The notes under the pieces were generated by a model. That model searched no databases, was not told where the DNA came from, and saw only the letters and a program-made list of their open reading frames with translations. The position numbers and the translations under genes are program-made. A DNA stretch of 64,000 nt from Macrostomum lignano (lineage: Eukaryota): the NCBI GenBank assembly GCA_002269645.1, contig NIVC01002829.1, forward strand, positions 29,794 to 93,793, given 5' to 3'. This document shows positions 20,061 to 64,000 of the stretch, piece after piece (the stretch's first letter is position 1; each line of letters starts with the position of its first letter).

Positions 20061-20073
20061 GATCCTCTCTTAC

Positions 20074-45592: not shown

Positions 45593-46260
45593 AGTAGTGC
45601 GAGTGGAGTTTGTACATTGAAATTTGTGTAGAAAAGATTGCATACAGAGTTTTTTCTTTCCATTCCTGGAATGACGGGTCTTCCTGGTTGGCATTGTTTT
45701 AATGCATCTTCCTCGCGAATGCCCAACCAGTCTTACATTTCGGCAACACAAAATTGCCCCTACAACAAAGTAGAAGGCATGAGGGGGCTTCTGGGACAAA
45801 ATTTTTCACCTCCTCCATAATCCACCTAAATCCATCCATATTATCCCTGACAGAATCAGAAAAAAAGGGGGGTCGCACTCGCTAACAAAACGTCCTCCAT
45901 AATCCACCTAAATCCTTCCATATTATCCCTGACAGAATAAGAAAAAAAGGGGGGTCGCACCCGCTCACAAAACGTCCTCCATAATCCCATTAAATCCATC
46001 CATATTATCCCCGAAAGAATCATGAAAAAGGGGAGGGGCCGCACTTGCTCCGAAAACTTCGAACATAATCCACCTAAATCCATCCATATTATCCCTGACA
46101 GAATCAGAGCAGGTGTCCACTGATACCTGTTATGCTCACTGACACCGACATCCATCCATAGCATCTTCGAAACAATCAGAAAAAAATATGCATTCTTCTC
46201 CCCACATTCAATTCGCAACATGAAACCAGATCCCTAAAACTTTAAACCCCCTAACCCAGG
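45593..46260. repeat. Candidate left terminal (TIR) region with subterminal direct repeats (ATAATCCMYYTAAATCCATCCATATTATCCC...GAATCAG)
   Basis: Starts AGTAGT; 4-5 imperfect repeats at ~45815-46110. The partner TIR is not in the window. Confidence 0.5.
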
Positions 46261-46300
46261 GTCCTTACCCTTTGAAAAAAAAATTAAATTTTCTCTAAAA

Positions 46301-46540
46301 ATGTTTCCAGTTGTCTCTCCAGGTTCTTATTACAAAGCGCACGAGCCTAATTACAAGAGTAAGTACCGATGCAAACTAGAATGCAGCGAGTACATGAGAA
46401 AATATTGGCCCGACGTTGATATCAATGTCCCTAATATTAATCTAGCTCTCCAAAGACACTGGTTTCATAAGTATGGAGTAACCTACGTAAAATATTACGA
46501 CAGCTACTATAACTTTGTAGAAATCATTAGACAATTGTGA
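46301..46540 (+). CDS. Polinton 79-aa Tyr-rich hypothetical protein, copy 1
   Basis: Intact in both copies with one amino-acid difference; A-tract before the ATG as in other element genes. Confidence 0.6.
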   Translation: MFPVVSPGSYYKAHEPNYKSKYRCKLECSEYMRKYWPDVDINVPNINLALQRHWFHKYGVTYVKYYDSYYNFVEIIRQL

Positions 46541-46544
46541 TTTC

Positions 46545-47408
46545 TTACATTCTTTCAATGATCAACGTCAATACAAACTCTTCCCCATTAAAATCAACGC
46601 CCATCCCATCTTCAGTCTCAAACTGTAGCACAATCTCGTGAATCTCCTTATTACTCAATACAACTCTTTTCACTGGATTTGGTTTCTCTACCACCATCTG
46701 TCCTCCAGCTACAGAGTTGGAGATGTTGTACAAAATATTAGTTCGCTTTCCCTTAAATACCCAATCAAGACTGAGATTAGTTCTGATTAGAATATTCAAA
46801 CCCTTTACAATGTCTGCTATATTGGGTGCTAAGAACAAACCGCGTACACTTTCCCGGGCCATGCTAACGGCCCCCGATGCTTGAGTGACAGTCCGCGCTG
46901 TGGATTCTGCCTTATAAACTTTCTTCACGAATCCCAATTCCCTATACCAAGTGTCATCTTTAAACTCAACCTCCGCATCTTTGTGAACTTGCATGACCAC
47001 TCTCATTACAGTGAGATCATAGGTTAGTTTAACAGGGAACAGTTTCTTCTCTGGCTTACTCATATCAGGTGTCTCAAAATGGCCTCTTTTAGTAAAGACG
47101 TTTTCTAGAAAGTAATTGTAGGTATCCACACTTTGCGTGCTCACAGGGAATACCACAGGTTCTGCTGCTGCACCTTTCCATTTGTAATAAAACTTATTAT
47201 TTGCTGCCGTCACATTGGGAACGTTTGACCAACCAGTGAAGTCGTTAAGATAGACATGGTAATTAGCACCTGGATCCAGGCTAATCGCCTGCTCTAATTT
47301 TTGAACAAATATCCCGTTTGAGTCATTAATCCGCCCAGTTATTGTAATAGGAATGCTCTCCTTGGAGTGCGAAATAATATTGTTTAGTCTTTCGGCTATA
47401 GCTTCCAT
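46545..47408 (-). CDS. Polinton minor capsid (penton) protein, copy 1, 287 aa
   Basis: Size, beta-rich pattern, PN...NNKFYY and C-terminal I.LQFETEDG..VDFNGE...L.I typical of Polinton pentons; adjacent to the major capsid gene. Confidence 0.75.
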   Translation of the reverse strand: MEAIAERLNNIISHSKESIPITITGRINDSNGIFVQKLEQAISLDPGANYHVYLNDFTGWSNVPNVTAANNKFYYKWKGAAAEPVVFPVSTQSVDTYNYFLENVFTKRGHFETPDMSKPEKKLFPVKLTYDLTVMRVVMQVHKDAEVEFKDDTWYRELGFVKKVYKAESTARTVTQASGAVSMARESVRGLFLAPNIADIVKGLNILIRTNLSLDWVFKGKRTNILYNISNSVAGGQMVVEKPNPVKRVVLSNKEIHEIVLQFETEDGMGVDFNGEEFVLTLIIERM

Positions 47409-47432
47409 TTTTTTCACCCACAAAAAAAATAT

Positions 47433-48719
47433 TTAAACTTTACTGGATGAATTGTTGATCATGTTAAGCTTCACCTTCCTCTCAAATGCATAGATAATGT
47501 ACAGGTCCACGGGTGTTGCGACAGTCCTCTCAATGTTAGTCACGATATTCACAGGGCTGTTATCAGTAGGCATTTGTCTGGCAGACACATCAGCGCCAAA
47601 CATCGGATATAGAGTTCCATATTGAAGAGCAGTGATAGCAATTCCATTGTTCTCTTTCACAGCCAAGTCGACCAACTCGCTATAAAATTTGCTAATCTTG
47701 TTCTGACTGAAATCTCCATTTTGTGGCAGTGCAGGGTAAAGATTATCACTGATTTCATGCTGAATGGACCGCACGTCTCCATGCATGTAGCGTATAATGC
47801 TATTTGGGTTTCTCATATTAATAATGATATACCTTGGATTGCTGCATGATCCCTCTTTAATGCAGATGTTTGTTCTAGTTTCGTTTCGCTCATCTCGACA
47901 CATGTAGGCCGTGTATGCAACATCAATGTCCTTCTCTATTGCCTTAAGATAATCAGCTTTTAGTGCAGTCTTTGGCTCAATGACTTCCAAATACAGCTCG
48001 ATTCCGGTTAGCTTCACCTCCATCCTTGTGTGGTCCGCCCCAGTCCACAACACTCTACTGCGATCATCTCTAGTCATCCTAAAGGTGTAGCTAAAGTTAC
48101 TAGTCAGTCGATTAAATGTATTACAGAATCCACTCATGAATCTCAGTGGTACAAATACATCAACAGACCGATACAGCGGGTTTTTAGCAGCATCATCAGC
48201 ACCTTGCAATGCATAGTTGTATCTCTTCTTCCTATTTTTATAACCACTGTCATTGATATCTCCTTCTTTTTCGTCTGCAATAAAACCCGCACCACTTCCC
48301 AATTGAATAAAATCAGGATTCTCGATTAAACAATGAGCGTCATAGACAATTCCAAAGTTGGCGATTCGCTCCAACTCAGTGCTCCCATTCGATACACTAA
48401 ACTCCTTGAACATGTACGCCCAAAAGTTACTGATCAGAGCCACATCCGCATCATGCTTGTCAACGTTAGCACGAGCCGCATCCGCACCACCCTTTGTCTT
48501 GAATTGAAATGTCATATGGAAGCCGCTCTTAAGACTGTGCACACTAACCAAAGACGAACATCCATTGTATGTAAATGTCAGTGTTTGACCAGGACCAAGA
48601 TTAGTTTCATTCTGATTTTCCTGACTGGGAACTCTTACCTGAGTCGCTTTGATTGTGCTATTATCACTCAAAATAGGCTTGTTAATCTTGTAGAAAACTG
48701 GTGTCAGTGGGTCGTTCAT
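47433..48719 (-). CDS. Polinton major capsid protein (double jelly roll), copy 1, 428 aa
   Basis: ELERI.NFG, VPL..MSGFC..F, PRYIII, YPMF..DVS resemble Polinton capsid motifs; size and context fit. Confidence 0.78.
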   Translation of the reverse strand: MNDPLTPVFYKINKPILSDNSTIKATQVRVPSQENQNETNLGPGQTLTFTYNGCSSLVSVHSLKSGFHMTFQFKTKGGADAARANVDKHDADVALISNFWAYMFKEFSVSNGSTELERIANFGIVYDAHCLIENPDFIQLGSGAGFIADEKEGDINDSGYKNRKKRYNYALQGADDAAKNPLYRSVDVFVPLRFMSGFCNTFNRLTSNFSYTFRMTRDDRSRVLWTGADHTRMEVKLTGIELYLEVIEPKTALKADYLKAIEKDIDVAYTAYMCRDERNETRTNICIKEGSCSNPRYIIINMRNPNSIIRYMHGDVRSIQHEISDNLYPALPQNGDFSQNKISKFYSELVDLAVKENNGIAITALQYGTLYPMFGADVSARQMPTDNSPVNIVTNIERTVATPVDLYIIYAFERKVKLNMINNSSSKV

Positions 48720-48749
48720 TTTTTAACTAAAAATAAAATAAAATAAGAA

Positions 48750-49979
48750 ATGAAGCGAAAAAGTACACAGCAGATATCTGAATTGGAGAAGCTAGCACAA
48801 GCAGAGAAACGAGTTACCGGGCTAATAAATAAGGAGCAACAATCCTACAATGAGTTTGTCCAAGCAGCCACAGAGTTTCATAAGCCCGGGTATGGAGAAG
48901 CTAAGAAAAATATTGATCAGGTCAAAGAAACTATCGACGACATACAGGAAACCCAGGTGCAAAAGGCCTTGGGCAAAATTCCAGAAGCACCACAGATACA
49001 GCCGCAACCACAGACACAACCGCAACCACAACAATCACAACCACAACAATCACAACCACAACAACAGCAACTAAAAGTGACAGATAACATTTTTGGACCA
49101 GTAGAGCGTGTAGAACATGATGGGAAATATGTATTTGGAATAAGTGTGTGGAGAAGAAACATTTATAATGAACCAGTGGAATATTATATCGACATAAATA
49201 AGAAACATATTTCTGTTGTTAAAGGCTCGGAAACTAAGAGCATTCCTTTCACAGAAACCTTACTGAATTTTATGACCAAGAACCAAGAGAGAATCTCGGA
49301 CAAACAGCTAAATAACTATAGAGATCTAGTGACTTTTGCTCTTGCTAGAGATATAGAAATACTAAAGGCCCCAGAAGTCCTGAGACTTATGTATGATAAC
49401 GGTGTCAACCTGACTAGATTCAAAAAGTACAAACACTTTAAACAATGGTTCGGTTTGCCAGATCAGGCGGAAGTCATAAAATATCTAGAACAACCACAAC
49501 AACAACAACGACCGCCACAACAGCAGCAACATTTCACAGAAGAACAAGTACTCAGTCAACTCGAGCAGTTAGACCCTTTGAAAGTAGCTGAATATAAGAA
49601 ACAAAACCCAACAGACTGGCAACGCTTAGAACAACACTCTCCAGATCGAATGAACAGAATCAAGCAAAGAGTTTTCACACCTCAACAAAGACAGGCACCA
49701 CATGACAGTTCCATCTCTGAAAGTGAGCAGTCTTTTGCATCACCTCCCCAGCAGCTACAAGCCCAACCAACTCCACAACCCCAAGACCAACCGCCCTCAA
49801 CTGGAAAAGGAATTTCTGAAATCTACAAGCGAGTAGCGGTTCTTCTAGGAGCGGCAAAGACCGGAATGAAAGATGAAAATAGAAAAGAATTTGTCAACAT
49901 CCTCAATAAAATGCTTGAGAGAAAATACATCGATAAGAGGGCGAGAGAGCTTCTGCTTTCGCGGTTCAACAAAAAATAA
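48750..49979 (+). CDS. Polinton 409-aa Gln-rich protein with a TGKG motif and C-terminal helical domain, copy 1
   Basis: Intact ORF. C-terminal RVAVLLGA.KTG..EF.NI...ML..I resembles a recurrent Polinton ORF. Confidence 0.7.
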   Translation: MKRKSTQQISELEKLAQAEKRVTGLINKEQQSYNEFVQAATEFHKPGYGEAKKNIDQVKETIDDIQETQVQKALGKIPEAPQIQPQPQTQPQPQQSQPQQSQPQQQQLKVTDNIFGPVERVEHDGKYVFGISVWRRNIYNEPVEYYIDINKKHISVVKGSETKSIPFTETLLNFMTKNQERISDKQLNNYRDLVTFALARDIEILKAPEVLRLMYDNGVNLTRFKKYKHFKQWFGLPDQAEVIKYLEQPQQQQRPPQQQQHFTEEQVLSQLEQLDPLKVAEYKKQNPTDWQRLEQHSPDRMNRIKQRVFTPQQRQAPHDSSISESEQSFASPPQQLQAQPTPQPQDQPPSTGKGISEIYKRVAVLLGAAKTGMKDENRKEFVNILNKMLERKYIDKRARELLLSRFNKK

Positions 49980-49996
49980 ATATCTATTTAAAAAAG

Positions 49997-50386
49997 ATGC
50001 CAATTATTTTCGAAAAAGACATTGACAAATACTATGACAAAGAGGAACTTAATCTTATTAAACGCGGATCTGGACTTTTCCCTGCAGGCCACTATCCAAG
50101 AAAAGAACGCTCTGGGAATGGCCTTGCTGATTTGATCGCTCAAGGGGCCAAGATTTTTAAGGTCATTGGAGAGAACAAAGAGAACATCAAGAACGTTGCC
50201 GAAGCGGCTGGCAGTGTAGCCACAGCAGCCAAAAAGATAAAGGATACTGTAACACCTAAACAAGAGATTCAGCCTCCACTGGCCCCGCTGGCTCCATTGG
50301 CCCCAAATCCAGACAGTGTGGACCCTGCAGTCTATGAGAAGATGAGGGCTAGCATTAAAAAAGGAAGTGGTTTCAAATTTGACTAA
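49997..50386 (+). CDS. Polinton 129-aa GxG-motif protein with an amphipathic helix (candidate core or membrane-lytic precursor), copy 1
   Basis: KRGSG, SGNG and KKGSG motifs; helix GLADLIAQGAKIFKVIG. Confidence 0.68.
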   Translation: MPIIFEKDIDKYYDKEELNLIKRGSGLFPAGHYPRKERSGNGLADLIAQGAKIFKVIGENKENIKNVAEAAGSVATAAKKIKDTVTPKQEIQPPLAPLAPLAPNPDSVDPAVYEKMRASIKKGSGFKFD

Positions 50387-50414
50387 AGGGTACTTTCCGA
50401 GGGTACAAGACTAG

Positions 50415-50560
50415 TCCCGAAATGACACATCTAAGTCTCAAAATGACACATCTAAGTCCCGAAATGACACATCTAAGTCCCGAAATGACACAATTAAGTA
50501 CCAAAATGACACATCTAAGTCCCAAAATGACACATCTAAGTCCCGAAATGACACATCTAC
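50415..50560. repeat. 21-bp internal minisatellite (AAATGACACATCTAAGTCCCG)n upstream of the ATPase; shorter version at ~57965-58070
   Basis: Direct reading. Confidence 0.88.
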
Positions 50561-50598
50561 ATTATTTATTATTTAAATTTTTTTTCATCATAGAAAAA

Positions 50599-51399
50599 AT
50601 GGACTTTTCAAACGACTTCAATCCTCACTGGACACGTAATCAGATTAAGTTTTCTCATCATGAGTCAATCCCAAGTCACTTCAGATGCATTGTTGTTGGT
50701 TCATCAGGTTCAGGTAAAACATTCAGAGTCTTTAACATGCTTCTTAGACCTGGCTTTATCGACTATGACACTCTGCACATCTACTCTCCCACACTGTATC
50801 AAGATGAGTATAAAATGCTGATTTCTGGATTGCAAAACAAACTGAACAAAGAGGACATTATTCAATGTTTTAATAACCAACAAATCCTTCCCAGCAACCC
50901 AGAAATTGTAGCTGCTGAATATGCAAAGCACCTCAAAGACAATGAAAAATGGCAGAACATTAAAGTGTTCACCTATGGAGATCCACAGGCTGATCCAAAG
51001 ACCAAACTTCTACCCCAACCAGATGAGCTAGAAAAGGGGAGAAAGCATTTGATCGTCTTTGATGATTGTATGACAGGCCCACAGAAGCAGATAGAAAACT
51101 ATTTTACAAGAGGGCGACATAACAATTGTAATGTAATTTACATTGCACAGAACTGGTTCGAGCTCCCGAACAAAACAATTCGTGGGAACTGCAATCTGAT
51201 TCTCCTGTTTCCAACCATTCCACAGGACAGGTTAAAAAGATTTTACAATGAGGTCATTGCGCCTGCCTATTTCATAAATCCAACAAAAAACTCAAGCAGA
51301 AAGATTTCACAAGAGGAATTCGTTAATCTTTGCTATGACAAGTGGAATCAGCCTTACCAGTTTGTGATTATCAGCAAAGAAAAAAGAACTGTAATTTAA
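50599..51399 (+). CDS. A32-like (FtsK-HerA) genome packaging ATPase, copy 1, 266 aa
   Basis: Walker A GSSGSGKT, Walker B LIVFDD, FTRGRHNNCNVIYIAQ. Likely true ATG 50599 (MDFSND). Confidence 0.93.
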   Translation: MDFSNDFNPHWTRNQIKFSHHESIPSHFRCIVVGSSGSGKTFRVFNMLLRPGFIDYDTLHIYSPTLYQDEYKMLISGLQNKLNKEDIIQCFNNQQILPSNPEIVAAEYAKHLKDNEKWQNIKVFTYGDPQADPKTKLLPQPDELEKGRKHLIVFDDCMTGPQKQIENYFTRGRHNNCNVIYIAQNWFELPNKTIRGNCNLILLFPTIPQDRLKRFYNEVIAPAYFINPTKNSSRKISQEEFVNLCYDKWNQPYQFVIISKEKRTVI

Positions 51400-51415
51400 A
51401 ATTTGCTATTAAAAG

Positions 51416-52234
51416 ATGTCGATAAACTTTGCAGGTGAATCCATTTCTGGCAACAGCGCTCTTACATCAGCTCAGATATCCATCCTTGACAGGCGATATA
51501 TCAACAGCGACGAAAAGATCCCAGAGATCAAACTGAATAAAAACAGACTGAAAGCCCTAGAGCGCTCTATGCACCAGTTGCAAATAAACATGGAAGATCT
51601 CAGGCTTAAAGTAGCCAGGCAGAAGTTTGAAAGTGATAAGCTTTATATGCCGTTGTTAAACGAAACTAATGAACTTAGGTCAGAAATAACTTCGATAGTC
51701 TCGCTAATCAACGGCTTGAGATCATCAGTTAATCTTCTGGGAAATTCCACTGATAGACGGATGCGTATTCTCGAAGGAGGAGTTTTCGCAAACACAGCTA
51801 AAGTAAATAATTTAGAAGAGTTCATGAACCAGTCAACAGCGTTGCATGATAGAATTAAAGAAAACGTCGCAACCAACACAGTTAAAGTCAATAATTTAGA
51901 AGAGTTCATGACTCAGTCAACATCGTTGCATGATCGAATCAAAGAAAGACTTGAAGCATTAAAGAGAAAGGATGTATCACACAGTAGCTATCTAAACGGA
52001 ATGTATAGCTCCTGGGGTAAAATACTAAGGAGGCTTGATCGTCTGGAGAGAACACTCAATCTTCGTGACATTGCTATTGATGAAGCAGAATCTGCTGCTC
52101 GTCCGGTCATGTCTACAGATCGAGTAGAAGGAGCTCTGGACCCCGCCGGAGTAATCCGGCACGCTCTCAAACGTCAGCCGCCCAGCCGCTGCCTGCTGGA
52201 CTCGCGATCCTCCGGCGTCACGAGAGCCGCCTAG
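51416..52234 (+). CDS. Coiled-coil protein (candidate fibre/spike), copy 1, 272 aa
   Basis: Heptad pattern with an exact 28-aa (84-nt) tandem repeat at 51791 and 51875. Confidence 0.65.
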   Translation: MSINFAGESISGNSALTSAQISILDRRYINSDEKIPEIKLNKNRLKALERSMHQLQINMEDLRLKVARQKFESDKLYMPLLNETNELRSEITSIVSLINGLRSSVNLLGNSTDRRMRILEGGVFANTAKVNNLEEFMNQSTALHDRIKENVATNTVKVNNLEEFMTQSTSLHDRIKERLEALKRKDVSHSSYLNGMYSSWGKILRRLDRLERTLNLRDIAIDEAESAARPVMSTDRVEGALDPAGVIRHALKRQPPSRCLLDSRSSGVTRAA

Positions 52235-52401
52235 ACAACCGGCGGTGCAGATGGAATTATCAAAAAGAAAACAGATCTTTCAACCGGATAGTTTTATAAT
52301 TTTTTTATTATTTTTTCTAGAGAAAAAAAATGGCCTAACAAAATTCTCTATACGATCAGTCTCAATACGTTGAACCTAAAATACCGACAGCACCAAACTC
52401 A

Positions 52402-53043
52402 ATGGCACCGAATTCGAACACACAAAACCTGGCACCGAATCTGAATGCACCTCAATATTCAGACCGACTTTACCCCGTCATTACTTGTAACTCTCAGCAG
52501 TTTCGACTGGTGGAGATTCAAAAAATGCGAGATGATCTTGAAAAAAATATTTTCCACAACACAAAGAAAATTAAACGCTATGAAAGCCACTGTAAATTTT
52601 TCGACTACAGCAATATGATTCTAGGATCTGTGTCTGTTCTATCTGGATCTGCTGCAGCTGTCTCAACGTTGCCAGTCATCACAGCCCCAATCGCAATCCC
52701 GCTCGGCTCTGTGGGTGCTGCATGTGGACTTATTTCAGCAATTACTGGAGCAGTAGCGCGAAACAGGCGAAAAAAACTAAAGCAGCTACAGGAGAAGCAA
52801 GTAAAAGAGAAAGGGGTGCACACTTCAATCATAGGGTACATTTCAAGGGCAATCGATGATAAGTTCATTTCAGAGGATGAGTTCAAAACCATTCAGGATC
52901 TTTATGAACAATCAATTCGAATGAACTTGAACATGGTCGGTACTGATGACATGAGTCAGCTGAGAAATGAACTCGAGAAAGTTCTTCAACATTATGTGGA
53001 AAGAAGGACAACGAGAAGGACAACGAGAAATACACCACAATGA
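52402..53043 (+). CDS. Two-TM helical-hairpin protein, copy 1; the upstream in-frame ATG 52330 is blocked by TAA at codon 3
   Basis: Hydrophobic hairpin ILGSVSVLSGSAAAVS..IAIPLGSVGAACGLISAITGAV, then basic RNRRKKLK. Near-identical to 59775..60434 except at the N-terminus. Confidence 0.72.
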   Translation: MAPNSNTQNLAPNLNAPQYSDRLYPVITCNSQQFRLVEIQKMRDDLEKNIFHNTKKIKRYESHCKFFDYSNMILGSVSVLSGSAAAVSTLPVITAPIAIPLGSVGAACGLISAITGAVARNRRKKLKQLQEKQVKEKGVHTSIIGYISRAIDDKFISEDEFKTIQDLYEQSIRMNLNMVGTDDMSQLRNELEKVLQHYVERRTTRRTTRNTPQ

Positions 53044-53047
53044 ACCC

Positions 53048-53359
53048 CTATGAAACACAGCCAAGAATAATTTCCTTGTAGGTCTTTCGTGTTTTGGTCA
53101 TTGCATACAAAACAGTCATGCACAGCTCACCGCAAATATCACTGCTAAGACCTTGGAGAATAAAGTCTGAGCGATAAATTTTTTTATTATTTTTCCCCTT
53201 CATATAATTTCTTAGCTCTTCTGGTACTGCCGTTCCATAGCTATCGAAGTAATAACACTTGTGCTTGCGATCGGGATCAATCACCCAGCAAACCCAATGA
53301 GATCCTGGCTTATCGGTGGTGTCAAAGTTCATGATGCCGCATTCCTTTCTTAGAGGAAA
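53048..53359 (-). pseudogene. 5'-truncated adenain-like protease at the tandem junction
   Basis: Near-identical to the 3' part of 60438..60839; the first ~30 codons are replaced by terminal-region sequence. Confidence 0.88.
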
Positions 53360-53860
53360 GTAGAAGGCATGAGGGGGCTTCTGGGACAAAATTTTTCACA
53401 TCCTCCATAATCCCATTAAATCCATCCATATTATCCCCGACAGAATCAGAAAAAAAGGGGGGTCGCACTCGCTCACAAAACGTCCTCCATAATCCTATTA
53501 AATCCATCCATATTATCCCTGACAGAATCAGAGCATAACAGGTGTCCTAGTTGCTCCGAAAACTTCGAACATAATCCCATTAAATCCATCCATATTATCC
53601 CTGAATCAGAGCATAACAGGTGTCGCACTCACTTACAAAACTTCGAACATAATCCTCCTAACCTATCCTCCTTCCTCCACGACAGAATCAGAGCATAGCA
53701 GGTGTCCTACATAATCCACTGACATCCACCCATAGCATCTTCGAAACAATCAGAAAACAATCTGTATTCTTCTCCACACATTCAATTCGCAATTCGCAAC
53801 GCATCCCAAAGACTTTGAATCCCCTAACCCAGGGTCCTTACCCTTTGAAAAAAAATTAAA
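53357..53860. repeat. Internal, terminus-less copy of the left terminal region (matches from 45767 onward)
   Basis: AAAGTAGAAGGCATGAGGGGGCTTCTGGGACAAAATTTTTCAC matches 45767 ff.; the subterminal repeats are rearranged. Confidence 0.88.
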
Positions 53861-53872
53861 TTTTCTCTAAAA

Positions 53873-54112
53873 ATGTTTCCAGTTGTCTCTCCAGGTTCTT
53901 ATTACAAAGCGCACGAGCCTAATTACAAGAGTAAGTACCGATGCAAACTTGAATGCAGCGAGTACATGAGAAAATATTGGCCCGACGTTGATATCAATGT
54001 CCCTAATATTAATCTAGCTCTCCAAAGACACTGGTTTCATAAGTATGGAGTAACCTATGTAAAAGATTACGACAGCTACTATAACTTTGTAGAAATCATT
54101 AGACAATTGTGA
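53873..54112 (+). CDS. Polinton 79-aa hypothetical protein, copy 2
   Basis: Duplicate of 46301..46540. Confidence 0.6.
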   Translation: MFPVVSPGSYYKAHEPNYKSKYRCKLECSEYMRKYWPDVDINVPNINLALQRHWFHKYGVTYVKDYDSYYNFVEIIRQL

Positions 54113-54116
54113 TTTC

Positions 54117-54980
54117 TTACATTCTCTCAATGATCAACGTCAGTACAAACTCTTCACCGTTGAAATCAACACCCATCCCATCTTCAGTCTCAAACTGTAG
54201 CACAATCTCGTGAATCTCCTTATTACTCAATACAACTCTTTTCACTGGATTTGGTTTCTCTACCACCATCTGTCCTCCAGCAACAGAGTTGGAGATGTTG
54301 TACAAAATATTCGTTCGCTTTCCCTTAAATACCCAATCAAGACTGAGATTGCTTCTGATTAGAATATTCAAACCCTTTACAATGTCTGCAATATTGGGTG
54401 CTAAGAACAAACCGCTTACATTTTCCCGGGCCATTTTAACGGTCCCCGATGCTTGAGTGGCGGTCCGCGCCGCGGATTCTGCCTTATAAACTTTCTTCTC
54501 GAATCCCAGTTCCCTATACCAAGTGTCATCTTTAAACTCAACCTCCGCATCTTTGTGAACTTGCATGACCACTCTCATTACAGTGAGATCATAGGTTAGT
54601 TTAACAGGGAACAGTTTCTTCTCTGGCTTACTCATATCAGGTGTCTCAAAATGGCCTCTTTTAGTAAAGACGTTTTCTAGAAAGTAATTGTAGGTATCCA
54701 CACTTTGCGTGCTCACAGGGAATACCACAGGTTCTGCTGCTGCACCTTTCCATTTGTAATAAAACTTATTATTTGCTGCCGTCACATTGGGAACGTTTGA
54801 CCAACCAGTGAAGTCGTTAAGATAGACATGGTAATTAGCACCTGGATCCAGGCTAATCGCCTGCTCTAATTTTTGAACAAATATCCCGTTTGAGTCATTA
54901 ATCCGCCCAGTTATTGTAATAGGAATGCTCTCCTTGGAGTGCGAAATAATATTGTTTAGTCTTTCGGCTATAGCTTCCAT
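54117..54980 (-). CDS. Polinton minor capsid (penton) protein, copy 2
   Basis: Duplicate of 46545..47408; intact. Confidence 0.75.
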   Translation of the reverse strand: MEAIAERLNNIISHSKESIPITITGRINDSNGIFVQKLEQAISLDPGANYHVYLNDFTGWSNVPNVTAANNKFYYKWKGAAAEPVVFPVSTQSVDTYNYFLENVFTKRGHFETPDMSKPEKKLFPVKLTYDLTVMRVVMQVHKDAEVEFKDDTWYRELGFEKKVYKAESAARTATQASGTVKMARENVSGLFLAPNIADIVKGLNILIRSNLSLDWVFKGKRTNILYNISNSVAGGQMVVEKPNPVKRVVLSNKEIHEIVLQFETEDGMGVDFNGEEFVLTLIIERM

Positions 54981-55000
54981 TTTTTGTCCTAAAAAAATAT

Positions 55001-56287
55001 TTAAACTTTACTGGATGAATTGTTGATCATGTTAAGCTTCACCTTCCTCTCAAATGCATAGATAATGTACAGGTCCACGGGTGTTGCGACAGTCCTCTCA
55101 ATGTTAGTCACGATATTCACAGGGCTGTTATCAGTAGGCATTTGTCTGGCAGACACATCAGCGCCAAACATTGGATATAGAGTTCCATATTGAAGAGCAG
55201 TGATAGCAATTCCATTGTTCTCTTTCACAGCCAAGTCGACCAACTCGCTGTAAAATTTGCTAATCTTGTTCTGACTGAAATCTCCATTTTGTGGCAGTGC
55301 AGGGTAAAGATTATCACTGATTTCATGCTGAATGGACCGCACGTCTCCATGCATGTAGCGTATAATGCTATTTGGGTTTCTCATGTTAATAATAATATAC
55401 CTTGGATTGCTGCATGATCCCTCTTTAATGCAGATGTTTGTTCTAGTTTCGTTTCGCTCATCTCGACACATGTAGGCCGTGTATGCAACATCAATGTCCT
55501 TCTCTATTGCCTTAAGATAATCCGCTTTTAGTGCAGTCTTTGGCTCAATGACTTCCAAATACAGCTCGATTCCGGTTAGCTTCACCTCCATCCTTGTGTG
55601 GTCCGCCCCAGTCCACAACACTCTACTGCGATCATCTCTAGTCATCCTAAAGGTGTAGCTAAAGTTACTAGTCAGTCGATTAAATGTATTACAGAATCCA
55701 CTCATGAATCTCAGTGGTACAAATACATCAACAGACCGATACAGCGGGTTTTTAGCAGCATCATCTGCACCTTGCAATGCATAGTTGTATCTCTTCTTCC
55801 TCTTTTTATAGCCACTGTCATTGGTGTCTCCTTCTTTTTCATCTGCGATAAAACCCGCACCACTTCCCAACTGAATAAAATCAGGATTCTCGATCAAACA
55901 ATGAGCGTCATAGACAATTCCAAAGTTGGCGATTCGCTCCAACTCAGTGCTCCCATTCGATACACTAAACTCCTTGAACATGTACGCCCAAAAGTTACTG
56001 ATCAGAGCCACATCCGCATCATGCTTGTCAACGTTAGCACGAGCCGCATCCGCACCACCCTTTGTCTTGAATTGAAATGTCATATGGAAGCCGCTCTTAA
56101 GACTGTGCACACTAACCAAAGACGAACATCCATTGTATGTAAATGTCAGTGTTTGGCCAGGACCAAGATTAGTTTCATTCTGATTTTCCTGACTGGGAAC
56201 TCTTACCTGAGTCGCTTTGATTGTGCTATCATCACTCAAAATAGGCTTGTTAATTTTGTAGAAAACTGGTGTCAGTGGGTCGTTCAT
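55001..56287 (-). CDS. Polinton major capsid protein, copy 2
   Basis: Intact 428 aa with 3 amino-acid differences from copy 1. Confidence 0.78.
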   Translation of the reverse strand: MNDPLTPVFYKINKPILSDDSTIKATQVRVPSQENQNETNLGPGQTLTFTYNGCSSLVSVHSLKSGFHMTFQFKTKGGADAARANVDKHDADVALISNFWAYMFKEFSVSNGSTELERIANFGIVYDAHCLIENPDFIQLGSGAGFIADEKEGDTNDSGYKKRKKRYNYALQGADDAAKNPLYRSVDVFVPLRFMSGFCNTFNRLTSNFSYTFRMTRDDRSRVLWTGADHTRMEVKLTGIELYLEVIEPKTALKADYLKAIEKDIDVAYTAYMCRDERNETRTNICIKEGSCSNPRYIIINMRNPNSIIRYMHGDVRSIQHEISDNLYPALPQNGDFSQNKISKFYSELVDLAVKENNGIAITALQYGTLYPMFGADVSARQMPTDNSPVNIVTNIERTVATPVDLYIIYAFERKVKLNMINNSSSKV

Positions 56288-56317
56288 TTTTTAACTAAAA
56301 ATAAAATAAAATAAGAA

Positions 56318-57541
56318 ATGAAGCGAAAAAGTACACAGCAGATATCTGAATTGGAGAAGCTAGCACAAGCAGAGAAACGAGTTACCGGGCTAATAAATAA
56401 GGAGCAACAATCCTACAATGAGTTTGTCCAAGCAGCCACAGAGTTTCATAAGCCCGGGTATGGAGAAGCTAAGAAAAATATTGATCAGGTCAAAGAAACT
56501 ATCGACGACATACAGGAAACCCAGTGCAAAAGGCTTTGGGCAAAATTCCAGAAGCACCACAGATACAGCCGCAACCACAGGCACAACCGCAACCACAACA
56601 ATCACAACCACAACAATCACAACCACAACAGCAACTAAAAGTGACAGATAACATTTTTGGACCAGTAGAGCGTGTAGAACATGATAGGAAATATGTATTT
56701 GGAATAAGTATGTGGAGAAAAAATATTTATAATGAACCAGTGGAATATTATATCGACATAAATAAGAAACATATTTCTGTTGTCAAAGGCTCGAAACTAA
56801 GAGCATTCCTTTCACAGAAACCTTACTGACTTTTATGACCAAGAACCAAGAGAGAATCTCGGACAAACAGCTAAAGAACTATAGAGATCTAGTGACTTTT
56901 GCTCTTGCTAGAGATATAGAAATACTAAAGGCCCCAGAAGTCCTGAACTTATGTATGATAACGGTGTCAACCTGACTAATTCAAAAAGTACAAACACTTT
57001 AAACAATGGTTCGATTTGCCAGATCAGGCGGAAGTCATAAAATATCTAGAACAACAACAACAACAACAACAACAACACAACCACAACAGCAACATTCACA
57101 GAAGAACAAGTACTCAGTCAACTCGAGCAGTTAGACCCTTTGAAAGTAGCTGAATATAAGAAACAAAACCCAACAGACTGGCAACACTTAGAACAACACT
57201 CTCCAGATCGAATGAACAGAATCAAGCAAAGAGTTTTCACACCTCAACAAAGACAGGCACCACATGACAGTTCCATCTCTGAAAGTGAGCAGTCTTTTGC
57301 ATCACCTCCCCAGCAGCTACAAGCCCAACCAACTCCACAACCCCAAGACCAACCGCCCTCAACTGGAAAAGGAATTTCTGAAATCTACAAGCGAGTAGCG
57401 GTTCTTCTAGGAGCGGCAAAGACCGGAATGAAAGATGAAAATAGAAAAGAATTTGTCAACATCCTCAATAAAATGCTTGAGAGAAAATACATCGATAAGA
57501 GGGCGAGAGAGCTTCTGCTTTCGCGGTTCAACAAAAAATAA
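56318..57541 (+). pseudogene. Gln-rich TGKG protein, copy 2, frameshifted (decay or assembly errors)
   Basis: Several 1-bp deletions against copy 1 (e.g. CCAGTG vs CCAGGTG at ~56523; CTCGAAA vs CTCGGAAA at ~56792). Confidence 0.8.
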
Positions 57542-57553
57542 TTTATTTAAAAA

Positions 57554-57939
57554 ATGCCAATTATTTTTGAAAAGACATTGACAAATACTATGACAAAGAG
57601 GAACTTAATCTTATTAAACGCGGATCTGGACTTTTCCCTGCAGGCCACTATCCAAGAAAAGAACGCTCTGGGAATGGCCTTGCCGATTTGATCGCTCAGG
57701 GGCCAAGATTTTTAAGGTCATTGGAGAGAACAAAGAGAACATCAAGAACGTTGCCGAAGCGGCTGGCAGTGTAGCCACAGCAGCCAAAAAGATAAAGGAT
57801 ACTGTAACACCTAAACAAGAGATTCCCTCCACTGGCCCCGCTGGCTCCATTGGCCCCAAACCCAAACAGTGTGGACCCTGCAGTCTATGAGAAGATGAGA
57901 GCTAGCATTAAAAAAGGAAGTGGTTTCAAATTTGACTAA
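57554..57939 (+). pseudogene. 129-aa GxG protein, copy 2, frameshifted
   Basis: 1-bp deletions relative to 49997..50386. Confidence 0.78.
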
Positions 57940-58113
57940 AGGGTACTTTCCGAGGGTACAAGACTAGTCCCAAAATGACACATCTAAGTCCCGAAATGAC
58001 ACATCTAAGTCCCAAAATGACACAATTAAGTACCAAAATGACACATCTAAGTCCCGAAATGACGCATCTTCTAAATGATTTATTATTTAAATTTTTTTTC
58101 AATCATAGAAAAA

Positions 58114-58914
58114 ATGGACTTCTCAAACGACTTCAATCCTCACTGGACGCGTAATCAGATTAAGTTTTCTCATCACGAGTCAATCCCGAGTCACTTCAGA
58201 TGCATTGTTGTTGGTTCATCAGGTTCAGGTAAAACATTCAGAGTCTTTAACATGCTTCTTAGACCTGGCTTTATCGACTATGACACTCTGCACATCTACT
58301 CTCCCACACTGTATCAAGATGAGTATAAAATGCTGATTTCTGGATTGCAAAACAAACTGAACAAAGAGGACATTATTCAATGTTTTAATAACCAAATGTG
58401 CCTTCCCAGTAACCCAGAAATTGTAGCTGCCGAATATGCAAAGCACCTCAAAGACAATGAAAAATGGCAGAACATTAAAGTGTTCACCTATGGAGATCCA
58501 CAGGCTGATCCAAAGACCAAACTTCTACCCCAACCAGATGAGCTAGAAAAGGGGAGAAAGCATTTGATCGTCTTTGATGATTGTATGACAGGCCCACAGA
58601 AGCAGATAGAAAACTATTTTACAAGAGGGCGACATAACAATTGTAATGTAATTTACATTGCACAGAACTGGTTCGAGCTCCCGAACAAAACAATTCGTGG
58701 GAACTGCAATCTGATTCTCCTGTTTCCAACCATTCCACAGGACAGGTTAAAAAGATTTTACAATGAGGTCATTGCGCCTGCCTATTTCATAAATCCAACA
58801 AAAAACTCAAGCAGAAAGATTTCACAAGAGGAATTCGTTAATCTTTGCTATGACAAGTGGAATCAGCCTTACCAGTTTGTGATTATCAGCAAAGAAAAAA
58901 GAACTGTAATTTAA
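58114..58914 (+). CDS. A32-like packaging ATPase, copy 2, intact
   Basis: Same Walker A/B and RGRH motifs; 266 aa. Confidence 0.93.
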   Translation: MDFSNDFNPHWTRNQIKFSHHESIPSHFRCIVVGSSGSGKTFRVFNMLLRPGFIDYDTLHIYSPTLYQDEYKMLISGLQNKLNKEDIIQCFNNQMCLPSNPEIVAAEYAKHLKDNEKWQNIKVFTYGDPQADPKTKLLPQPDELEKGRKHLIVFDDCMTGPQKQIENYFTRGRHNNCNVIYIAQNWFELPNKTIRGNCNLILLFPTIPQDRLKRFYNEVIAPAYFINPTKNSSRKISQEEFVNLCYDKWNQPYQFVIISKEKRTVI

Positions 58915-58930
58915 AATTTGCTATTAAAAG

Positions 58931-59667
58931 ATGTCATAAACTTTGCAGGTGAATCCATTTCTGGCAACAGCGCTCTTACATCAGCTCAGATATCCATCCT
59001 TGACAGGCGATATATCAACAGCGACGAAAGATCCCAGAGATCAAACTGAATAAAAACAGACTGAAACAATTAGAGCGCTCCATGCACCAGTTGCAAATAA
59101 ACATGGAAGATCTCAGGCTTAAAGTAGCCAGGCAGAAGTTTGAAAGTGATAAGCTTTATGTGCCGTTGTTAAACGAACTAATGAACTTAGGTCAGAAATA
59201 ACTTCGATAGTCTCGCAAATCAACGGTTTAAGAACAAATTTAGCATCGACATTAATCTTCTGAGAAACTCCATTGATAGCGGATGCGCATTCTTGAAGAG
59301 GAGTTTTCACAAACACAGCTAAAGTGAATAATTTAGAAGAGTTCATGAACCAGTCAACACGTTGCATGATAGAATTAAAGAAAACGTCGCAACCAACACA
59401 GGTAAAGTGAGGAATTTAGAAGAGTTCATGACTCAGTCAACAGCGTTGCATGATCAAATCAAAGTAAGAATTACTGCAAATAAAGTCTTTGTAGATTTAG
59501 TTTTTACCGAATGGCAGAAATCGGTGAGAAGAATCGGTCGTCTTGAACGCTTGCATAATCTCAAAAACATTGACGCTGAAGAGGCACCACAGACCACAAG
59601 GGAAACAAGTGATCCAACCGACTTGTTTGAGATCATGCGTAGAATGGAGCTCACAGATAATGAATAG
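58931..59667 (+). pseudogene. Coiled-coil fibre candidate, copy 2, frameshifted in the 5' half, with a different C-terminal domain
   Basis: ATGTCATAAAC vs ATGTCGATAAAC in copy 1. ORF 59362..59667 diverges from copy 1 after LHD.IK. Confidence 0.72.
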
Positions 59668-59774
59668 GCAGATTCAGAGACCTGTTGCCGTCACTGCAGA
59701 CGAAGCAATCAACCGTAAAACAAATCTAACCACCACCAACTAGTTGCCGATTTTTTTTAAAAAATTCCCAAAAA

Positions 59775-60434
59775 ATGGATGCTCAAAATTCTCTTTATGA
59801 TCCGAACGCTCCCACAACACCTAGTGCACCTAGTGCACCCCAATATGAGCAACAAAAACTCTACCCTGTCATTTCTTGTAACTCTCAACAGTTTCGACTA
59901 GTGGAGATTCAAAAAATGCGCGATGATCTTGAAAAAAATATTTTCCACAACACAAAGAAAATTAAGCGCTATGACAACCACTGTAAATTTTTCGACTACA
60001 GCAATATGATTCTAGGATCTGTGTCTGTTCTATCTGGATCTGCTGCAGCTGTCTCAGTGTTGCCAGCCATCACAGCCCCAATCGCAATCCCGCTCGGCTC
60101 TGTGGGTGCTGCATGTGGACTTATTTCAGCAATTACTGGAGCAGTAGCGCGAAACAGGCGAAAAAAACTAAAGCAGCTACAGGAGAAGCAAGTAAAAGAG
60201 AAAGGGGTGCACACTTCAATCATAGGGTACATTTCAAGGGCAATCGATGATAAGTTCATTTCAGAGGATGAGTTCAAAACCATTCAGGATCTTTATGAAC
60301 AATCAATTCGAATGAACTTGAACATGGTCGGTACTGATGACATGAGTCAGCTGAGAAATGAACTCGAGAAAGTTCTTCAACATTATGTGGAAAGAAGGAC
60401 AACGAGAAGGACAACGAGAAATACACCACAATGA
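59775..60434 (+). CDS. Two-TM protein with PSAP/LYP motifs (candidate ESCRT-recruiting egress protein), copy 2, intact 219 aa
   Basis: N-terminal PSAPSAP and KLYPVI, coiled coil, hydrophobic hairpin, basic stretch and a DDKFISEDEF tail. Confidence 0.75.
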   Translation: MDAQNSLYDPNAPTTPSAPSAPQYEQQKLYPVISCNSQQFRLVEIQKMRDDLEKNIFHNTKKIKRYDNHCKFFDYSNMILGSVSVLSGSAAAVSVLPAITAPIAIPLGSVGAACGLISAITGAVARNRRKKLKQLQEKQVKEKGVHTSIIGYISRAIDDKFISEDEFKTIQDLYEQSIRMNLNMVGTDDMSQLRNELEKVLQHYVERRTTRRTTRNTPQ

Positions 60435-60437
60435 ACC

Positions 60438-60839
60438 CTATGAAACACAGCCAAGAATAATTTCCTTGTAGGTCTTTCGTGTTTTGGTCATTGCATACAA
60501 AACAGTCATGCACAGCTCACCGCAAATATCACTGCTAAGACCTTGGAGGATAAAGTCTGAGCGATAAATTTTTTTATTATTTTTTCCCTTCATATAATTT
60601 CTTAGCTCTTCTGGTACTGCCGTCCCATAGCTATCGAAGTAATAACACTTGTGCTTGCGATCGGGATCAATCACCCAGCAAACCCAATGAGATCCTGGCT
60701 TATCGGTGGTGTCAAAGTTCATGATGCCGCATTCCTTTCTTAGAGGAAAATCAGGCAGAGTGTCCCTCATAAATATTCCTCTAAAGTTTGGGATTTCCAG
60801 TTCGTTAGCCAAATCTTCAAGAAAGTTATTTGTCGTCAT
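60438..60839 (-). CDS. Adenain-like cysteine maturation protease, 133 aa
   Basis: Catalytic His (GSHWV), Asp (YFDSYG) and Gln/Cys (QGLSSDICG). Likely ATG 60839. Confidence 0.92.
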   Translation of the reverse strand: MTTNNFLEDLANELEIPNFRGIFMRDTLPDFPLRKECGIMNFDTTDKPGSHWVCWVIDPDRKHKCYYFDSYGTAVPEELRNYMKGKNNKKIYRSDFILQGLSSDICGELCMTVLYAMTKTRKTYKEIILGCVS

Positions 60840-60871
60840 TTTTTTGAGGTTTATTAAACTTTCTCTCAAAC

Positions 60872-63800
60872 CTAAACCCAATATCCACCTCCTAAACCTA
60901 ACCTCCAGTGCCCGAACGGTAGACTGTTAATATTGTCATCAAAAATGAATCTCTTGTTATCTGCACCTGACAGTCCAATCTTCTTTTGCTGAATTGTGTG
61001 AATAATATGGTTTTTAGATTGTAGCTTTGAGAACTCATGTGATGTCTTTTTGTTGCAATTCAAGGCGTCTCTGTATTCAGCTTCATTAATTTCCTTCCTA
61101 ACCACACGTTTCGGAATTCCCTTTGATTTTTTATTGGGTCTGACGACTCACATTTTATAAAATAGGACTTTGCTCTCAACCCAATGAATTCAGTGATTAT
61201 GTCACCAGCAATCTCGTCCTTCATTTTCCCAATCACTTTCTTGTTAGTGGCGTCAAACACTTGATCGCCATTCTGTGTCCTGCAAGATTCATCATACTCA
61301 GACAAGTCAAACAAATCTTTTTGCTGCAGCATGTCCTGATAAATGTCTTCTGTTTGAATGTCCATAATAAAACTGTCTGTGTCAGTGTACAAGAGTTTCA
61401 TTTTATCCTTGTACTGCTGCTTCATGCCATAGAAGAACTGGTACATCAGACGTTTTGATTCGTCGAGAACAGTGACACCTGTATAGATCGGCTTGCGCAG
61501 CGTCACCTTGGTTTTGTAAAATATGATCACACCTAAGTAGCTATTAAAGATATGGAGTTCTTTGAATGTTGGCTTTGACATATTTGCCTGAATAACATCA
61601 GGCTCTGATGAGGTAACAAGTTTCAGGTTTGTTCTTTTCCGCTCATTCTCAAGAGTCTTGCCATAGACAGAGTTGTTGGCCAACTTAAAGAGGTTCTTGT
61701 CAAAGTCGTTGGTTGCTTTGGTCCTAAACTGGGTGTTCTTATCAATGTAGGGTTTCATCCACGCTTCCTCTGTAAATGTAAGAGCCCGGTGAACTTTGGT
61801 GACCCTGCAACCAAGTGAGATAAAATACTGAAGCAGTTTGTAATGGATTTTGTAACGTGTCTTGTTGTTTAGATTCTGTGTTAGTTTCTCTGTATGTTCT
61901 TTTTCTGTTCCTGACAGGTGCCAAGTTCCATTATTATCATTGGGAGTTTCGATTATTTTCGGGCACTTGATGTTCTCTGGGAAGGGTGGAAAGTCAGAGA
62001 AATAGTCGTGAAGCTCTGGTGGAATGTAAACATCAACCTCATAAATGGCAGCCAATGAAAAGTCCCATTTGAATTCTGATGAGGGTAGCCATCGAAAATC
62101 TCTAACTGGAAGATCTTGACTCATCGCCCACCCGTAGAGATTATTAGCGTCCAAGTAAGTAATGTAGTTTGAGGGCTGCTCCTTATTGTAAGATTCAATG
62201 TAGGGATTGTTTGCTTTTGCATACCTGTTAACAAAATTGAGATTCCCCCTCGCTTTGACGATTCGACAAAATTGTACATGTCAATGTCTGTAAGAAGTTC
62301 AATGTACCAATCTGGATCTTGATCCCATTTCATTTTAAGCAAAGATTCCCAGCTAGTGGCGGGCAGAGACACATAATGTGCTGGATCGAGGCCATATGCT
62401 GTGTACCAGGTGCATCTGAAGGTTTCAAACACATCAGCCAGCAGAAACACATCTGTGAAGAGGTAAAGCAGGTGATACTGGAAGAAGTTTTGACAATTAA
62501 AGTAATTATAGACATGCTTCGCGTGCTCATAGTCTTTGTCAGAGATTCCAGAGTCTGTTAGCTTTGAAAAGAACTTCTCCTGTGGTGGTAAACCTTCTTC
62601 AAATACGTGATACCCAGTAATATTTTCATAGGGGTAGAAGCCTTTGTTCTCAGGAGTTTAAATGATTCATCACTGTTGTTAATTTTACTTGCAAACATCT
62701 TTGTATATGTACATTGTTCATCTTTTAGATTCTTGCTTAGTTCGTCTAGACTGGCAGCTAGAAATTGATATGAATCCTTCAGTCTTATTTTACCTGTACC
62801 CGAATTATCCTGTTTAATATCAACACACTTAAACTTCTCCTTGTTCTCTGCGATGCAATCAAGGTGTATGTCTGGAATCATGCCGATTTTTTCAACTATT
62901 AAATGCATGTCATAGTTCTTTGCGTTGTGACAAAATATCGTTAGATCATGAATGTTCGATTTTAGCTTTAGATTACAGGTGTTATGCGCTGCACCTCTAA
63001 ATTTCCCAGTAAGTGGCAGTGGTCCCTAACGGTGGGGTTTTTAATATTAGTGCAAGTTAAATGTTTCCTGCAGATGTGGCAATGAGTTGCTGATAGGAAA
63101 TTGCTTTCATCCTCCTCAGACATACTTATTGGAACAGGTTGAAGGGTGCTAATCACTTTTTGCAACTCTAACATTCTGGCAATAAACTGCTCCACACACT
63201 GCTCTCCAAAGAAATAATTATACTCAACAAGTCCTTTTGTATTAATAAAGGCATATGCTACTGAATTGGGGATATGTTTTGAGTTTGAGTTTGTTTTGAG
63301 TTGGATGTTTTTGAGTTGGAGTTTTTTGAGTTTCTGGCACGATTGAGCATTCGAAATCAGCATATACAACAAATGGGAGCTTCTCCATCTTGTGATAGTT
63401 CTTAAACCGGAGATACTTCTCTTCAGCTGAAGGAAGAGAGCAGTTTGTCGGGTGATCCTCGCATGATAATTCATGCTCTGCTAGTTTTTCAAAGCGTTCA
63501 GGTCCACTGTAATGCTTAAGGCACAAGCGGCAGATGGCAACAGCCTCGTGATGATTATTCAACTGCTTGTGAATGAGTCTTGAAAGATCTTTAATCCAAA
63601 CATAGTGAGCCTCCTCTAGTAAATTACCAATCACTAGAAGATCCACTTCAGTCCGCCTTTTCCCCTCGGATCTAAAACGTCTTTGCTACATCTGACCGGT
63701 TGAACTTTCTCAGTTTTTCACTCCACTCAAAGACTGTGATTCTAATTTTGTTATTAAACACTTCTTCTAGCTTTGGGATCTGAGAGATGCCAAGCCTCCT

Positions 63801-64000
63801 TTGTCAAACCTGATTCCCTTCTTTTCGCATTCAATGAGATAGTAGTTAAAATAATTTTGATAATTTGAGGTTCTTTCGGGGTGGTGAGGGACACTAAAAA
63901 GTGCAGAAAGAACTGCCATAGAGCACAGCAATTGTCTTTATTTTTAACATTTATGCAAGCTTTTTTACCGGCTAGCTTATGCGGGAGCTCTATATAAGAG
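60872..64000 (-). pseudogene. Protein-primed family B DNA polymerase (pPolB), multiply frameshifted, 5' end outside the window
   Basis: SYIELP..KKACINVKN, ExoI YADFEC, RDHCH domain, CHNAKNYD, ExoIII DVFLLADVFETFR, motif A LDANNLYGWAMSQ, motif B KLANNSVYGK, motif C YTDTDS, C-terminal LPFGH; spread over six or more ORF fragments. Confidence 0.93.

Follow-up and report, generated by a model that had tools for sequence, protein, structure and literature searches.

A 64,000-nucleotide stretch of the genome of the flatworm Macrostomum lignano (assembly GCA_002269645.1, contig NIVC01002829.1, positions 29,794 to 93,793; the window) carries much of two Maverick/Polinton elements, both complete once overlapping contigs are added, one of which is inserted in the protease gene of the other. 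Very probably both belong to one young, high-copy family of elements of about 16 kb that run from AGTAG to CTACT and duplicate 6 bp of target; on this reading the outer copy entered the 3' untranslated region (UTR) of a TMEM72-like host gene, and the second entered the outer protease gene later. The initial annotation had instead described a single near-complete element beginning at 45593, with its virion genes assembled from two copies.

At about 45.8 kb, the window switches from repeat-rich host DNA of about 52% G+C (GC) content to compact, intronless open reading frames (ORFs) of about 40% GC, and two collinear blocks follow, 45767-53359 and 53357-60749, which match each other in two pieces at 95.5% (over 6.2 kb) and 98.2% identity. 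The left terminus of the outer copy, AGTAG, lies at 45769, and other family copies begin at the matching base. An element start at 45593 is excluded: the bases from 45593 to 45768 have no match in any of the 60 element-bearing loci compared, are 99% identical to an empty allele, and are host 3' UTR sequence. Both introns of the TMEM72-family gene are spliced in three of three RNA runs, two of which reach 45769 and one of which continues into the empty-site sequence, and the last exon has a stop codon before 45769 in all three frames; the insertion point of the outer element is thus the 3' UTR of this gene. Contig C301 carries the gene uninterrupted, with the target site in single copy, and the duplicated target sites together with this empty allele establish that the elements were integrated.

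A second terminus lies at 53359, within the protease gene of the outer copy. A pattern made of a right terminus, six unspecified bases and then the protease remainder had two matches, in both of which the six positions held the bases of 53353-53358, and none in a reversed control; the two contigs concerned, C1684 and C2806, are re-assemblies of the window locus. C1684 is 99.0-99.4% identical to window positions 49781-64000 and continues past 64000, where NIVC01002829.1 stops, with polymerase, a pX-like gene, integrase and a phospholipase A2 (PLA2)-like gene as far as the inner right end, and then with the remaining outer genes, the outer right end and the six bases seen before 45769. The right-hand part of C2806 is laid out in the same way. 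The integrase and the right ends, which the initial annotation had placed in an adjacent window, therefore sit in overlapping contigs. The two elements have lengths of 15,759 bp (inner) and about 16,629 bp (outer); the left terminal repeat of the outer copy, which contains an 82-bp repeat array (45811-46108), differs from its right end, as read in C2806, by a single substitution in 740 bp. Because the inner copy is flanked by its own termini and by a 6-bp target-site duplication, we regard the arrangement as a nested insertion and not a duplication. The sole certain lesion in the window is the outer protease gene, which the inner copy splits.

Animal Mavericks are 13-25 kb long and are characterized by inverted repeats of 100-1500 bp at their termini, a duplication of 6 bp at the target site, a protein-primed DNA polymerase B (pPolB) and an rve integrase, along with an ATPase, an adenovirus-like protease, a double jelly-roll capsid and purifying selection on the morphogenesis genes (10.1101/2023.08.22.554363; PMC8097293). 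The M. lignano elements possess pPolB, rve integrase, AG..CT terminal repeats, a target-site duplication (within the 5-8 bp, usually 6 bp, of Mavericks), a length of 13-25 kb, a double jelly-roll capsid, an A32/FtsK ATPase and an adenovirus-like protease, which bears out the initial assignment to a Polinton equipped with virion genes. Mavericks with a full complement of virion genes are widespread in animals, and insertions in flatworms are on record already, so the gene content as such is unsurprising.

The major capsid protein is identified by its fold. An AlphaFold2 model built on a 56-sequence alignment has a predicted local distance difference test (pLDDT) score of 88.7; Foldseek places Sputnik at the top (E 2.9e-16), the match to the PBCV-1 capsid reaches Z 25.3 (root-mean-square deviation 3.5, 345 residues aligned), and 16 viral capsid or scaffold chains precede the first unrelated fold (Z 7.9) in the structure ranking. 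The fold check proposed with the initial capsid call therefore returned a double jelly-roll. By sequence, the best Pfam match is PF21738 (E 5e-5, below cut-off), the capsid profile had no matches among PDB sequences, and the closest relatives are unnamed proteins at 72% and 43% identity, most others being at 21-35%. The adjoining 287-amino-acid (aa) gene is a penton candidate. The ratio of nonsynonymous to synonymous substitution rates (dN/dS) for this gene is 0.08-0.27, it has 13 unnamed relatives at 39-65% identity, and its nearest ESM Atlas clusters are 93-100% viral (score 0.98, recognition slightly below threshold). It has no Pfam match, and its profile found among solved structures only a dynein (E 0.009), which we take to be a chance hit.

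Polymerase pieces in the window are 28-47% identical to the PolB of Corynactis coral adintovirus (E 1.6e-155), and the polymerase of another copy passes the PF03175 (DNA_pol_B_2) cut-off (30.9 vs 25.8 bits). Exo I and Pol A, B and C motifs are recognizable in the polymerase. The closest named polymerases, those of Mytilus, Bradybaena, Oculina and Corynactis coral adintovirus, are 40-43% identical, and an endonuclease-VII-like zinc insert scores slightly below its Pfam cut-off. The integrase, present past the window in both nested copies, passes the PF00665 (rve) cut-off in another copy (34.4 vs 32.6 bits). Phospholip_A2_4 (52.5 bits) and Adeno_PX (27.7 bits) both exceed their cut-offs, in separate ORFs of other copies. 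Variable cargo ORFs of 140-350 aa occupy the space from the PLA2-like gene to the right terminus in L015, L020, L023, L030, L043, L051 and L052; they differ from copy to copy and pass no Pfam cut-off.

The remaining genes of the window are listed in Table 1. As initially annotated, the outer copy has uninterrupted frames for the penton candidate, capsid, two GxG proteins, ATPase and 272-aa protein, and the protease frame of the inner copy is open. The two copies need not be combined to obtain the four core morphogenesis genes, since the inner copy alone has open penton candidate, capsid, ATPase and protease genes. The ATPase has Walker A and B motifs and a dN/dS of 0.03-0.14, and the protease has motifs at His49 and Gln99/Cys106. 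A 21-bp tandem repeat lies directly upstream of each ATPase gene (50413-50559, 7 units; 57966-58069, 5 units) and adds in-frame ATGs ahead of the probable start. The 409-aa Gln-rich protein (dN/dS 0.21-0.37; no Pfam family over cut-off) is a putative core or cement protein, and the 129-aa protein a putative protease-processed core protein. In the inner copy these two genes have six and three frameshifts, of which three and one, respectively, recur in C1684. The 272-aa protein (dN/dS 0.28-0.39) is probably what had been called a fibre candidate, a label that finds no support in its weak coiled-coil Pfam matches or its top ESM Atlas score of 0.79. The 213-aa hairpin protein, whose 219-aa inner twin has a hydropathy peak of 1.85, is possibly membrane-active. 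The LxCxE motif of the 79-aa ORF is kept in 34 of 41 matches from the examined loci, and one such motif per element is near chance; Oncoids have been described elsewhere (PMC8502044).

Table 1. Features of the nested elements and their surroundings (window positions), with palindromic copies from other contigs
Feature	Position	Strand	Remarks
Host TMEM72-family gene and 3' UTR	44598..45768	+	Introns GT-AG 44950-45025 and 45123-45215; Pfam TMEM72 above cut-off
6-bp target-site duplication, outer element	45763..45768	+	Identical 6 bases after right terminus in C1684 and C2806
Left terminal inverted repeat, outer element	45769..46508	+	740 bp, starts AGTAG
79-aa ORF with LxCxE, candidate Rb-binding Oncoid	46301..46540; twin 53873-54112	+	Overlaps terminal repeat
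Penton (minor capsid) candidate, outer copy, 287 aa	46545..47408	-	Adjoins capsid gene
Major capsid protein, outer copy, 428 aa, double jelly-roll	47433..48719	-	AlphaFold2 fold and structure matches
Gln-rich protein, 409 aa, GxG site near C-terminus	48750..49979	+	Open frame
129-aa protein, three GxG sites	49997..50386	+	dN/dS 0.02-0.06
Packaging ATPase, A32/FtsK-type, outer copy, 266 aa	50599..51399	+	Pfam Pox_A32 27.4 bits (cut-off 22.8)
Coiled-coil-like protein, 272 aa, 28-aa repeat	51416..52234	+	Weak coiled-coil Pfam matches only
Protein with hydrophobic hairpin, 213 aa	52402..53043	+	Weak two-transmembrane Pfam match below cut-off
Outer protease gene, 3' part, interrupted by inner element	53048..53358	-	Gene resumes past inner right end in C1684 and C2806
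6-bp target-site duplication, inner element	53353..53358	+	Right-terminus pattern search
Left terminal repeat, inner element	53359..53870	+	About 76% like own right end beyond first ~120 bp
Inner penton candidate (54117-54980) and inner major capsid (55001-56287)	54117..56287	-	Both frames open
Inner Gln-rich and 129-aa genes	56318..57939	+	Frameshifted in window contig
Inner packaging ATPase	58114..58914	+	Open
Inner coiled-coil gene, with frameshifts; open gene for the 219-aa hydrophobic-hairpin protein at 59775-60434	58931..60434	+	
Adenain-type cysteine protease, inner copy, 133 aa	60438..60839	-	Open; Pfam Peptidase_C5 21.9 bits (cut-off 21.3)
Protein-primed DNA polymerase B, inner copy	60887..64000	-	Several frames, runs off contig end
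Palindromic non-autonomous copies	C1652:28604-39932, C276:289398-300645, C633:134497-147606		L001-L006

Genome searches covered a 764-Mb assembly that is redundant, the window locus itself being present in three contigs. The copy census suggested at the outset returned 352 exact matches to a 19-base terminus motif and 189 to a 26-base one, with none in controls; given that redundancy, the resulting figure of about 176 elements cannot serve as a strict lower or upper bound on copy number. A capsid search gave 663 first-look candidates, of which the best 98 scored were all 98-100% identical and 96 were without a stop, this set of best-scoring matches being biased to open frames, and all 117 scored integrase matches were 90-100% identical. 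From the first 100 listed termini we obtained 30 facing pairs and examined 22 of them, the 20 spaced 12-19 kb and 2 longer ones. Terminal inverted repeats of 92-1124 bp were present in all 20 sampled copies, an exact 6-bp target-site duplication in 16 and an open capsid gene in 13. dN/dS was 0.08 for capsid, 0.14 for protease and 0.17 for both polymerase and integrase, each against one reference, and the capsid value was also 0.08 among 14 copies with dS below 0.1. The family is young and abundant, with its capsid genes under purifying selection. Its recent activity, as initially proposed, is supported by the 6-bp duplications, the allele lacking the insertion, terminal repeats that differ at one of 740 positions, the at least 352 termini and the selective constraint on the capsid genes. 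More nested copies are suggested in C27, C33, C827 and C1604 by termini that point in one direction at distances of 5-15 kb, and the 31-32-kb copies in C48 and C1203 (L053-L060) are single elements with inserted DNA in polymerase, capsid or integrase regions.

Some copies are rearranged. At two loci, palindromic copies have 4.7-kb arms that are 99.7-99.9% identical, with two capsid genes, two penton genes and clean 6-bp duplications, and have no polymerase or integrase. Two of them, in C1652 and C276, share flanks with the element body flipped, as either an inversion isomer or an assembly swap. A rearranged variant with a penton fragment at its integrase end is 99% identical at two insertion sites (C1330, L035-L036; C819, L043-L044). 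The right end of the inner copy resembles that of the outer copy, and terminal-repeat divergence was rejected as a clock for the inner copy, which is younger than the outer and yet has ends only 76% alike; its unlike ends point to a mosaic rather than to age. These structures would fit a process in which linear genomes switch templates and recombine as they replicate, and are then integrated by an integrase supplied in trans. At L011:3795-5252 (C70), an ORF with an integrase zinc finger and rve domain, resembling those of long terminal repeat (LTR) retrotransposons, stands in place of the capsid gene.

Whether the many broken frames are real bears on how these copies are read. Across 21 copies (205 kb), we counted 231 isolated frameshifts, of which 189 are one-base deletions and 12 one-base insertions, and 10 stop codons. 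Where contigs cover the same locus, one comparison of 3.6 kb shows 12 one-base gaps without any substitution and another of 9 kb shows 13 gaps with a single substitution; because the contigs differ by gaps and hardly by substitutions, most breaks look like long-read assembly errors. The inner copy therefore cannot be called decayed, nor can any copy be called intact from the assembly. The breaks of the inner copy are mostly not reproduced between contigs: the window polymerase has 10 frameshifts, 3 of which recur in C1684, and C1684 in turn has broken capsid and penton genes where the window copies are open. Frameshifts amount to 0.06 per kb in penton, 0.16 in capsid and 2.07 in polymerase, and in the 20 sampled copies their density rises from a minimum at the capsid end to a peak in the middle of the element and drops again towards the integrase end. 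Uneven polishing is our preferred, unproven account of this gradient. More generally, a family that is still live can appear dead if it is judged by the number of frameshifts in a long-read assembly.

Sequencing data were consulted for expression. Twenty runs from 7 studies hold at least half of the capsid-arm words, none recorded as RNA; 4 of 24 listed runs were mapped, as contigs, onto the window, and 3 of these are proven RNA by splicing. Every bin of the capsid arm is covered in all three RNA runs, and single-copy DNA at 42000-44285 has no cover in two. The element has a total DNA depth about 520 times that of single-copy sequence. RNA-run and DNA profiles correlate at rho 0.28 and 0.23 in two of the runs, and host-gene read-through, as at the TMEM72 locus, is another source of RNA cover.

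Several observations weigh against our reading of a young, active family with conserved virion genes. DNA carry-over of 0.07-0.27 times single-copy depth would suffice for the cover in the RNA runs, and in the third run the RNA and DNA profiles correlate at rho 0.71. The RNA cover of the capsid arm, the outcome of the transcriptional check first suggested for this DNA, was therefore rejected as proof of expression. A polymerase ORF longer than 1,100 aa occurs in only 1 of the 20 sampled copies, and 3 of 116 polymerase matches in the genome lie in stop-free frames of more than 1,200 codons. Several separate insertions have the same break close to the 3' end of the polymerase gene, which means that part of the lesions may be genuine and inherited. 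The dN/dS pairs share one reference per gene, are not independent, and reflect past selection only. Single-protein scans of viral and metagenome contigs, which are insensitive and reach close relatives only, gave no capsid relatives, and the 287-aa protein is labelled a penton candidate on position, size and selection.

The two blocks of the window could conceivably stem from one decayed element, through tandem duplication or through a collapse in the assembly, given that they are collinear and 95.5% identical, that the locus is present in three contigs with many 1-bp errors, and that among the matches listed no short-read contig crosses the 53359 junction. We consider this highly improbable. 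Neither a collapse nor a tandem duplication creates a target-site duplication, and in two contigs the inner copy has both termini, with the duplicated 6 bases and then the protease remainder after the second; tandem duplication was rejected on these grounds. It is also unlikely, if less so, that the frameshifts are true decay, with nearly all copies replication-dead and the capsid arm alone kept open, perhaps to the benefit of the host. Such decay would account for the 10- to 30-fold gap in frameshift rate between capsid arm and polymerase and for the polymerase breaks that recur in a second contig, but not for the excess of one-base deletions with so few stops, nor for same-locus contigs that differ almost only by gaps, and domestication does not predict more than 100 dispersed fresh copies.

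Two accounts concern how the family spreads. It may do so only as an intracellular, self-synthesizing transposon that forms no particles, its capsid genes being open because the burst is recent; we give this account a substantial chance, somewhat short of even. Copies this young (one terminal-repeat mismatch) would show little neutral decay, integration has also occurred for copies that lack capsid, polymerase or integrase genes, and the transcription evidence is not firm. Against it, capsid dN/dS is low even among the closest copies and below that of polymerase and integrase, and capsid and penton have the fewest frameshifts. Alternatively, and only tentatively, the family might be a working virus in its host today, with free linear replication, recombination, capsid packaging and germ-cell re-entry; the palindromic copies would then resemble defective-interfering genomes, and the low break rate of the capsid arm would reflect real selection on the capsid genes of each individual copy. 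If this is true, M. lignano would be a culturable animal for direct observation of Maverick particles and their life cycle.

Under our preferred reading of a young, recently active family, a Maverick copy would leave the chromosome, its linear DNA would be copied by the protein-primed polymerase from the terminal repeats, linear copies would recombine with sister copies, and integrase would re-insert the products, moving defective copies in trans. The steps from excision to re-integration reportedly go back to the replication model of Kapitonov and Jurka from 2006. Mobilization in trans is suggested by the palindromic copies, which have 6-bp duplications and no polymerase or integrase, and by the rearranged variant at two sites. 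Conservation of the capsid genes suggests that the lineage passed through capsids in recent history, in which case the ATPase would package DNA, the protease would cut the GxG-bearing core proteins, and PLA2 and pX proteins would breach membranes on entry. Particle formation by M. lignano Mavericks is plausible. According to two sources, no particles of an animal Maverick have been observed (10.1101/2023.08.22.554363; PMC8097293), and indirect evidence for particles is reported from insect cell lines (PMC8502044). The M. lignano genome is a good place to seek them, since it has well over 100 copies of recent origin, an insertion that is polymorphic and capsid genes that are strongly conserved.

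Size, terminal repeats, 6-bp duplications, core gene set and purifying selection are shared with other animal Mavericks. The M. lignano family differs in its high copy number (352 termini, in a redundant assembly), the corresponding vertebrate figures being a median element count of 8 and a maximum of 38 intact copies in one genome (PMC8097293), and in its nested and capsid-arm palindromic copies. Features shared with alpha (Mayetiola-class) adintoviruses are a PF03175-type polymerase (at a low score), a PLA2-like gene, a pX-like domain and an LxCxE Oncoid candidate, whereas PLA2 and pX, fused there as PLA2X, are separate genes on opposite strands here (PMC8502044). The Corynactis coral adintovirus PolB is 40% identical over the polymerase region and has the same endonuclease-VII-like zinc insert, and itself has no PF03175 match. 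Pfam detected no OTU domain in the M. lignano polymerase or its 6 tested relatives, the Corynactis PolB among them; the N-terminal region aligns with that PolB, with a Cys and a His in common that may mark an OTU-like domain. No named reference capsid was among the capsid or penton relatives found. On gene content, the family appears closest to alpha-type adintoviruses, yet because PLA2 and pX are separate and the OTU domain is only putative, we file it as Maverick/Polinton and not in that subgroup.

Nematode Mavericks with the MFUS-1 fusogen have the same core genes, and their capsid model finds the same top structures (Sputnik, faustovirus and PBCV-1) at Z 24.4 vs 25.3 here (10.1101/2022.07.12.499685); unlike them, the 20 listed M. 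lignano copies have no 800-aa gB-like fusogen ORF. The entry proteins of the M. lignano family look like PLA2/pX and the small hydrophobic-hairpin protein. The virophages Sputnik and mavirus share the capsid fold, and mavirus is described as integrating through an rve integrase (PMC8502044). Capsid sequence identity to virophages is only 9-10%, however, the named polymerases nearest to that of M. lignano are from molluscs and corals, and no helper giant virus is known for the family. Orthopolintovirales insertions have been reported in Rhabditophora (10.1101/2025.04.19.649669), and our literature search found no paper on Macrostomum Polintons or Mavericks, and general papers on nested, palindromic or non-autonomous Polintons, with subscription papers and Repbase mostly outside it, so that the family may already be catalogued.

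The host DNA between 834 and 41547 of the window is dense in minisatellite arrays of unrelated 4-40-bp units, up to 2.8 kb long, and several Maverick copies elsewhere in the genome sit within such arrays. Host gene pieces at 1-816, 3922-9272, 17480-20950 and 26751-27278 encode a Kelch repeat, an FtsH/AAA protease with M41 domain, a leucine-rich repeat and a C2 domain. A search with a leucine-rich repeat protein of the host returned 2 hits, neither of which was informative about host identity. Outside the window, L061 (C1982:179846-180208) is a short nuclear COX1-like fragment, below cut-off, of insufficient length for a reading of the mitochondrial code, and probably a mitochondrial insertion.

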